This document shows positions 39,001 to 41,475 of a stretch of DNA of 41,475 nucleotides, piece by piece. Origin of the DNA: Shigella phage SfII. The DNA lies in the sequence record NC_021857.1; one strand, 5' to 3'. The position numbers are program-made. Position 1 is the first letter of the stretch. Each line of letters begins with the position of its first letter.

Positions 39001-41475
39001 TCAAAGTCGTTAGGTACTGGGTTCTTTTATCAACATAGCAATGGTTTCATTTTCCTTGCAACTAACTATCATGTAATAACTGGAATCAGCCCATCCGAAA
39101 TGAAGTGGTCAACAAAAACTGGCCACCGAGTTAGAGTTTTTCCAGTATCGATTTTCCGATTCGTTTGGGGGTAACCCACCGTTATATTCGTGCGGTCTTA
39201 GTGCACTGTAATATCCCACGATATAGTCCGTTATGGCGTGAGCTGCCTCGCTGAAGCTTACGTAACCCACCACCGGCATCCATTCGTTCTTCAGACTCCT
39301 GAAGAAGCGTTCCATTGGGCTGTTATCCCAGCAGTTTCCGCGCCGGCTCATACTCTGTCTGATCTGGTATCGCCACAATAACTGCCCGGAACTGCCTGCT
39401 CGTATAATGACTGCCCTGATCGCTGTGGAACATCACCCCGCCGGGCTTACCACGGGTTTCCCATGCCATTTCCAGCGCTTTCATGGTGAGCCTGCTGTCC
39501 GGCGAGAACGACATGGCCCAGCCCACTGGTTTTCTTGCGAACAGGTCGAGAACAACGGCGAGGTACGCCCAGCGCTTACCCGTCCAGATATAGGTCACAT
39601 CACCGCACCACACCTGATTTGGCTCGGTCACGGCGAACTGCCTTTCAAGGTAGTTAGGGATAGCAACATGTTCATGACCACCACGTTTATACCGGTGAGT
39701 CGGCTGCTGACAGCTGACCAGCCCCAGCTCTTTCATGAGCCTGCCAGCAAGCCAGCGTCCCATCTGGTAGCCTCTCCGGGTTGCCATTGTGGCGATGCTT
39801 CTTGCTCCGGCCGAACCGTGGCTGATGCCATGTAGCTCAAGTACCTGACTGCGTAATACAGCCCGTCTGCCGTCTGGTTTTTCAGGACGGTTTTTCCAGT
39901 ATCTGTAGCTGCTGCGATGAACCCCGAACACATGGCAGAGTGTGACCATAGGATAATGCGCTCTGAGTTTCCCGATTATCGAGAACTGTTCAGGGAGTCT
40001 GACATCAAGAGCGCGGTAGCCTTTTTTAATATTTCATTCTCCATTTCAATGCGTTGTAGCTTTTTCCTGAGCTCACGGATTTCAATTTGTTCCGGGGTAA
40101 TGGGGGAGGCTTTTGGTGTTTTGCCCTGACGCTCATCACGCAGTTGTTTGACCCATCTTGTCATTGTGGAAAGGCCAACATCCATAGCTTTGGCGGCATC
40201 TGCCACCGTGTATTTCTGGTCAACAACCAGTTGAGCGGATTCGCGTTTAAACTCTGCGCTAAAATTTCTTTTTTTCATTGGAGCACCTGTGTTGTTCTGA
40301 GGTGAGCATATCACCTCTGTTCAGGTGGCCAAATTCAGTGTGCCACTTCAAGGGGTGTAAAGCCATTTATAGGCGATAGTATTGATATTCAGCTGAGAGA
40401 TAAAACCGGAAAACTATTCAAACATACGATGCCTCTGTTTAAAGATGGTTCACCGCTGTGGTTGGAGCACCCCACAGATAAAGAGGCAGACATTATCTTG
40501 ATGCCTTTGCCTCAAGAGTTGTTTGTAAACACAGGAGTAAAAGTAGTCTCAAAAACAACGACACTGCCTAATGTCCAGATAAACCCCTCATCTCCTGTTG
40601 TAATGATTGGATATCCTCATGGTTATCATGACACGACTCACTACCTTCCAATATGGAAAACAGGAAGCTTAGCGAGTGAGCCAGATATCGATTTCGATGG
40701 GAAGAAATTAATAGTTGTCGATATTTCTGCTTTCCCTGGAATGTCAGGCTCTCCGGCATTCTATGTCACACACAGTGGTTATCTTACAAAAGAAGGGAAT
40801 ATGATCATGGATATGGGAATGAAAATTCATTTCCTTGGCGTTTATGCAAGTATGCAAATGCTAAACAGTGATCTTTTCTTAGAACAAGTCGTTAGTGCTG
40901 CAGAATACAAAGTGTCGCATAGTGAATCTTTGCAACTAGGGCATGTCTGGAAAGCTGAGTTACTTGAAGAGATAGCTGCGACATCTAGTCCGATTGCAAC
41001 CACACCATCTCAATTTCAAAGTAATAGCAAATTCTTATTTAAGTACTGAGATACGTCTACACATAAACCGCCTGTTGGAGGTTTTTATGCATATCGTGCG
41101 AGCAGTATCAGAGAGAATATTTCAATGCCACCACGAACACCAAAAGCCTGCCGTGTTCGCGGCTGCCGATCGACAACCACAGACCCGTCAGGTTATTGCA
41201 AGCAACACAAAGGCGAAGGCTGGAAGCAATACAAGCCAGGACAATCCCGTCATCAGCGCGGTTATGGTTCGAAGTGGGACGTTATCCGCGCGCGTGTGCT
41301 GAAGCGTGACAAAGGCCTGTGTCAGTTGTGTTTGCGTGCCGGTGTGGTGCGCGAGGCGAAAACCGTTGACCACATCATTCCTAAAGCGCATGGCGGCACT
41401 GATGCCGACCGTAATCTGCAGAGTCTGTGCTGGCCGTGTCATAAGGCGAAGACGGCCCGTGAACGGTTGAAGTGA

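Follow-up and report, generated by a model that had tools for sequence, protein, structure and literature searches.

A single inserted G in orfB of IS911 in the Shigella phage SfII genome record, and whether the phage itself carries it

Does the IS911 copy in Shigella phage SfII encode a working transposase, and if its orfB is broken as written, does the break belong to the phage or to its record? SfII, which converts serotype, is a temperate phage of Shigella flexneri 2a, induced from strain NCTC 4 (PMC3772137). The window analyzed here is its entire published genome of 41,475 bp (KC736978 / NC_021857), which was assembled from eight PstI fragments of native DNA, cloned in pBluescript, read on both strands by the Sanger method, and ordered by primer walking (PMC3772137). 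The genome paper gives SfII_55 and SfII_56 as transposases (PMC3772137); neither there nor in the SfIV comparative paper is a frameshift in IS911 orfB mentioned. IS911, its family, and this kind of defect are all already well known.

An IS911 element with an intact programmed frameshift site

By sequence, the element is IS911, of the IS3 family, but a defective member. It starts with 5′-TG, ends with CA-3′, and is bounded by imperfect inverted repeats of 36 bp, the length described for IS911 (PMC2909936). Its identity, already claimed in the initial annotation, holds: the curated IS911 of phage Sf6 (NC_005344) matches it at 99.8% identity over the full 1250 nt, and so do, also at full length, the copies on S. 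flexneri virulence plasmids to which PGAP gives the name IS911. Identity to E. coli copies is 98.6–98.9%, the difference residing mostly in a nine-change tract at IS positions 246–282 (window 40069–40105). Eight of these nine substitutions fall at 3-nt spacing in orfA, and the tract divides Shigella-type copies (SfII, pINV, Sf6, and loci L008 and L009) from E. coli-type copies; the identical sequence on both of its sides suggests a short recombination or gene-conversion tract. The intact copies aligned, from E. coli chromosomes, the S. flexneri virulence plasmid, and phage Sf6, are all 1249 bp long. In four of them (L001, L003, L004, and L016) OrfAB was reconstructed at 389 aa; for its length, one published paper has 382 aa in the legend to a figure and 292 aa in its main text (PMC2909936).

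In IS911, orfA and orfB are joined by programmed −1 frameshifting at an A-AAA-AAG heptamer followed by a downstream structure (PMC2909936; PMC5009743), the stimulator being a three-way junction (PMC5009743). The SfII copy has the 100-aa orfA, an orfB in −1 phase, the heptamer, and the predicted stimulator fold (Table 1). Its exact OrfA protein is present on 662 contigs under the name IS911 ORF1, and the predicted fold is alike in SfII and in an intact copy, at −25.1 kcal/mol each. Elsewhere, a recurrent 1248-bp variant (L002 and several other E. coli chromosomes; five among the 74 full-length copies sampled) is short of one A in the heptamer, at IS 324, which places orfB in +1 rather than −1 phase relative to orfA, while the RefSeq CDS is still labeled "programmed frameshift."

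Table 1. Features of the IS911 locus in the SfII genome (window coordinates)
Feature	Coordinates	Strand	Basis or remark
5′ part of interrupted phage S1-family peptidase gene	38938–39100	+	Intact homologue, empty site
Complete IS911, 1250 bp	39101–40350	−	Ends TGAAGTGG...CCACTTCA; full-length identity to known copies
Right inverted repeat (IRR), 36 bp	39101–39136	−	No difference from intact copies
Stranded 3′ part of orfB (...QLLWRYQ...NSPMERFF...), with E323 and rve_3 region	39109–39384	−	Pfam rve_3, 2.3e-11
T1134G, synonymous	39217	−	Alignment
208-aa ATG ORF (SfII_55)	39323–39949	−	ORF match
orfB frame to premature stop; HTH_21 and rve core with D227 and D287	39323–40027	−	ORFs/Pfam
GGG run with extra G (GG in intact copies)	39385–39387 (IS 964–966)	−	CCC on + strand
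G402A, GTG to ATG, Val111 to Met in OrfAB	39949	−	Alignment
Predicted branched stem-loop, putative frameshift stimulator 3′ of slippery site	39958–40014	−	Predicted fold
orfA, 100 aa plus stop, intact	39976–40278	−	Pfam HTH_Tnp_1, 3.8e-14
Programmed −1 slippery heptamer A-AAA-AAG	40021–40027	−	Same as in intact copies
Left inverted repeat (IRL), 36 bp	40315–40350	−	No difference from intact copies
3′ part of interrupted S1-family peptidase gene	40351–41049	+	100% identical to S. flexneri prophage L132
206-aa ORF (SfII_57)	40429–41049	+	ORF match

The break in orfB and its predicted product

The lesion was defined by alignment to nine other IS911 copies, the nearest of which differs from SfII at exactly three places: G402A, an extra G at IS 964–966, and T1134G. 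The second of these is a single G inserted into a GG run, CCGGGCA in SfII versus CCGGCA in intact copies. The initial annotation had described a second, unprogrammed break in orfB near 39350–39380, besides the programmed site, between two segments described as contiguous in intact IS911. Alignment with intact copies confirms the break and the contiguity, which is exactly what those copies encode, and resolves the discontinuity to one inserted G; its place was slightly misjudged, the GGG run lying 5 nt outside that range, and 39323–39378 being merely the overlap of the two ORFs derived from orfB. Chance is no issue here, because the break is read directly from the minus strand: the first frame reaches its stop codon at 39323–39325, and a second frame carries (QLL)...SFC* to its end at 39109. 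Of the two substitutions, G402A was considered as possible damage to the frameshift stimulator and rejected, since it falls outside the predicted structure.

Following the programmed −1 shift, the predicted OrfAB product is 318 aa long and consists of 298 native residues (...HYTSRQFR) and a 20-aa tail, which is the out-of-frame translation of the last 20 codons of the first orfB frame. Deletion of one G restores a 389-aa OrfAB that is the same as the S. flexneri IS911 transposase on record except for M111. In the restored protein the catalytic residues are D227 (WCGD), D287 (FHSD), and E323 (SPME, with a K seven residues on), with a D–E spacing of 36. R298 is the last residue in frame, which puts the break between D287 and E323 and leaves the DD(35)E core incomplete in the 318-aa product: D227 and D287 are kept, whereas E323 and the C-terminal 91 residues are missing. 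Profile searches trace the same truncation. The NCBIfam model NF033516 (IS3 family transposase), whose curated cut-off of 160 bits both product forms exceed, is covered from 1 to 368 of its 369 positions by the repaired OrfAB (379.7 bits) and from 1 to 296 only by the actual product (280.8 bits), and the Pfam rve match is cut at profile position 87 of 102. As written, then, the SfII copy is predicted to be unable to make active transposase. The earlier claim that OrfAB transposase is probably not made stands insofar as the break precedes E323 and costs a catalytic residue; it holds if the base is real.

A plausible sequence of events can be outlined for an element carrying this base. OrfA (100 aa) would still be made, and ribosomes would still slip by −1 at A-AAA-AAG, since neither the heptamer nor the stem-loop downstream of it is altered. 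The fusion protein would leave the orfB frame after Arg298 and stop 20 codons later. The resulting 318-aa product would keep the helix-turn-helix, leucine-zipper, and multimerization regions together with D227 and D287, and would be unable to catalyze strand cleavage or transfer owing to the loss of E323 and the C-terminal 91 residues. Conceivably, such a protein could have a putative role as an inhibitor of IS911 activity. The intact 36-bp ends could be used by OrfAB from the many other, intact IS911 copies in a Shigella host, albeit at low efficiency in trans. Donors are in ample supply in S. flexneri, with at least 13 IS911 copies in one chromosome and a further copy on the plasmid; the activity of IS911 transposase in cis nonetheless exceeds that in trans ~200-fold (PMC5009743). 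The proposal that the element is mobilizable only in trans is therefore sound in principle, both inverted repeats being intact, but such mobilization would be inefficient (PMC5009743).

A recent insertion with no known counterpart

The inserted G is found in no other copy searched. A 61-nt probe across the lesion has no exact match at 7881 places in 3703 E. coli complete genomes, nor at 2013 places in plasmids (129 Shigella records included). An exact 38-mer containing GGG likewise has 0 matches in 185,579 species-representative genomes and 0 in IMG/VR, where the control 37-mer with GG occurs in 23 and in more than 80 stretches, respectively. None of 74 full-length copies recovered from control loci has the extra G, A402, or G1134, and probes for G402A and T1134G have no full-length exact match in E. 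coli. Sixty of these 74 copies encode an intact 389-aa OrfAB, while the other 14 carry other lesions; defective IS911 copies are thus common, and the SfII defect is unique among the copies searched. At the protein level, the exact 208-aa frameshifted ORF is present only in the SfII record. Two apparent recurrences were rejected. A 208-aa cluster member of S. flexneri 2747-71 proved to be a different truncation with the normal ...SRQFRQLLWRYQ... sequence. An 80-aa downstream ORF (MSRRG...) on 265 contigs, which could have signified a widespread identical break, had the normal GG at ten of ten fetched loci; these have instead an 11-bp deletion, a nonsense codon, or truncation by other IS elements or contig ends, in a sample that is biased towards breaks directly upstream of that ORF.

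The insertion itself can be placed in time by comparison with a sibling. IS911 interrupts an S1-family peptidase gene situated between Rz/Rz1 of the lysis cassette and the HNH and terminase genes, and an intact 286-aa homologue is present in a prophage of E. coli MS1679 (L005, 11721–12581). In S. flexneri GCA_900457135.1 (locus L132), a prophage almost the same as SfII has an empty IS911 site. It is identical to SfII over 28979–32054, 32719–39100 (except for one 39-bp gap), and 40351–41475, thereby matching about 10.6 kb of IS911 flanks exactly, and is 99.9% identical over bases 1–8058. On this comparison, the insertion is recent against the divergence of the two prophages. Contrary to the initial description as a fixed insertion, it is found in the SfII record only, the site being empty in the near-identical S. 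flexneri prophage. Since the ~10.6 kb of flank is free of substitutions relative to this empty-site sibling, the three changes in the element cannot have built up at this site: they were either brought by a diverged donor copy that has not been sampled or are artifacts.

Two further differences separate the siblings. At 10595–11925, L132 has an IS2 (1331 bp, with a 5-bp duplication) in the same peptidase gene, at the equivalent of window 40778–40782 and ~430 bp further along the gene than the IS911 site; the gene, interrupted twice independently, is evidently dispensable. Moreover, window 32055–32718, comprising the Dam methyltransferase gene and the end of a PerC-like gene, is a mosaic patch in otherwise identical sequence, marked by 24 substitutions, most of them synonymous, and by two 1-bp gaps where it begins on the left. 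Both ORFs remain open, the PerC-like C-terminus differs, and the patch resembles an allelic replacement by recombination.

The target duplication of the SfII copy is atypical. At its junctions (39100 and 40351), AAA precedes the element and AGGGG follows it, while the empty site reads AAAGGGG, and the flanks are contiguous in both empty sites (L005 and L132). The duplication is thus 1 bp (an A) instead of the 3 bp, occasionally 4 bp, that characterize the family. Among other copies, with 61 distinct flank pairs, 3 bp are shared in 13 and 4 bp in three. The single-base duplication may be due to an unusual insertion event, to a junction that lost two A's, or to an error in the sequence.

A lesion in the phage or an error in the record

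We give about an even chance to a genuine, recently inserted IS911 with a real +1 G in orfB, and hence a non-autonomous copy. Falling just short of an even chance is the alternative that the extra G, and probably both substitutions, are absent from the phage population and arose as Sanger base-calling errors or as mutations in the single pBluescript PstI clone sequenced; the true SfII copy would in that case be an intact, autonomous, normally active IS911 of 1249 bp. We infer the presence of the extra G in the phage, and not merely in the record, at roughly the same strength as an artifact.

Several observations argue for an error. The three differences are unique among thousands of IS911 copies. 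A repaired OrfAB with M111 is absent from a collection of 15 billion proteins; its V111 counterpart is found there, on 24 contigs, and is on record for S. flexneri. The identical sibling flanks, as described above, exclude accumulation in place, and a freshly transposed copy would be expected to be intact given the cis preference of the transposase (PMC5009743). The record also has blemishes elsewhere. SfII is without exactly 39 bp that lie between two PstI sites in L132 (6333 and 6372) and in the E. coli L005 prophage. The gap, at window 35307–35314 (PstI site 35309), removes 13 codons from antiterminator Q (35266–35577), shortening it from 116 to 103 aa, and looks like a lost PstI mini-fragment because the genome was assembled from cloned PstI fragments (PMC3772137). 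Six further substitutions (1539, 1568, 3646, 3799, 4185, and 5187) distinguish SfII from L132 within 1–8058 and also separate it from all or nearly all of SfI, SfIV, and vB_EcoM-689R6. Four of the six are non-synonymous (S-to-I and R-to-G in TerL, C-to-F in the portal, and F-to-I in the capsid protein), and two are a mere 29 nt apart in TerL. The SfII forms of TerL, portal, and capsid are each found on one contig only, that of the SfII record itself, while the numbers of contigs with the L132 forms are 474, 5, and at least 1000, respectively. The six changes may have arisen as errors or through mutation in the laboratory stock or the clone, and single-base peculiarities of the SfII record are unsafe evidence of natural variation. 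They were exposed only by comparison with the nearest relative, L132; in a four-way tally of private substitutions across 14.9 kb, SfII, with 54 (17 non-synonymous and 37 synonymous), is no worse than its relatives, and SfIV looks far noisier. SfIV has 120 non-synonymous versus 138 synonymous private substitutions, an unusually high share relative to SfII, SfI, and vB_EcoM-689R6, and its record (L018) has clusters of compensating 1–5 bp indels at ~6566–7082 and 9681–9689; together these hint at sequence-quality problems in the SfIV record.

Other observations pull in the opposite direction. The non-IS 4.3 kb of the very PstI clone that bears the element (35309–40898) has zero differences from the independent L132 assembly. 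Because the ~10.6 kb of flanks, this portion included, is identical to L132, base calling around the element was accurate, and three errors within 1.25 kb would need a local cause. A clone with an inactivated transposase may have been favored on the high-copy vector; such selection would account for the frameshift, but not for the synonymous substitution. According to the genome paper, Sanger sequencing covered the two strands of the cloned native DNA (PMC3772137). No structural gene has a private indel of a length other than a multiple of three when compared with SfI, SfIV, vB_EcoM-689R6, and an E. coli prophage. Indel clusters at 33545–33621 and 32053–32070 were considered as errors and rejected, being mosaic allele boundaries with intact ORFs, and one at about 5657 was rejected as a coding frameshift, being intergenic. 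Finally, inactivated IS911 copies are hardly exceptional (14 of the 74 full-length copies, with other lesions), and within ~35 nt of the SfII lesion an 11-bp deletion or a nonsense codon is seen in other copies.

A real lesion comes at a price: a diverged, never-sampled donor must be assumed, because the flanks are identical and the site is empty in the sibling, and the ~200-fold cis preference (PMC5009743) makes an intact copy the normal parent to expect for a new insertion. That the donor already had all three changes, and that a dead IS911 was mobilized in trans into an infectious phage genome, is improbable. If true, it would be a natural case of IS911 trans-mobilization despite the strong cis preference of OrfAB, in which the phage carries between Shigella hosts a non-autonomous IS, perhaps with a truncated, inverted-repeat-binding OrfAB that damps IS911. 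A second recoding event at UUC-CGG-GCA that restores some full-length OrfAB, whether through transcriptional slippage or through a ribosomal shift of +1, is scarcely credible. CGG, a rare arginine codon in E. coli, might in principle make ribosomes pause, but no motif known to promote +1 shifting is present, and re-pairing in the +1 frame is open to neither the Phe nor the Arg tRNA. Three G's in a row are far too few for transcriptional slippage, and the motif occurs in no other IS911 copy and is thus no conserved feature.

Taken as a real defective copy, the SfII element can be set beside better-known relatives. Like the IS911 of phage Sf6 and of the S. flexneri plasmid, it has 36-bp inverted repeats, a 100-aa OrfA, and A-AAA-AAG with its downstream structure; orfB is the same except at three positions. 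The Sf6 and SfII copies both reside in a dispensable gene of a temperate Shigella phage. SfII departs from the Sf6 and plasmid copies in the extra G, with an OrfAB of 318 instead of 389 aa, and in the private substitutions G402A and T1134G, and its 1-bp target duplication contrasts with the 3 bp of the Sf6 copy and most simple insertions. Inactivated Shigella and E. coli copies (the 11-bp deletion of L008 and L009, the nonsense codon of L010, and the 1248-bp form) are likewise full-length with intact ends and a small lesion, but each lesion differs from that in SfII. C-terminally truncated derivatives such as the engineered OrfAB[1-149] bind inverted repeats well and are catalytically inert (PMC2909936; PMC1636345). 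The predicted SfII product resembles OrfAB[1-149] in having the N-terminal DNA-binding and multimerization regions and an incomplete catalytic domain; it is much longer, with 298 native residues, two of the three catalytic residues, and a 20-aa foreign tail.

The main practical result is caution about the SfII reference record, with little weight beyond curation, and on either account no new question is raised for transposition or phage biology. If the extra G is an artifact, KC736978 / NC_021857 needs correction at IS911, and also at the 39-bp PstI fragment in gene Q and possibly at the terminase, portal, and capsid codons. If the lesion is real, the SfII IS911 would be a dead passenger with no unaided spread from the phage to new hosts, and a modest natural example of IS decay or of mobilization in trans.
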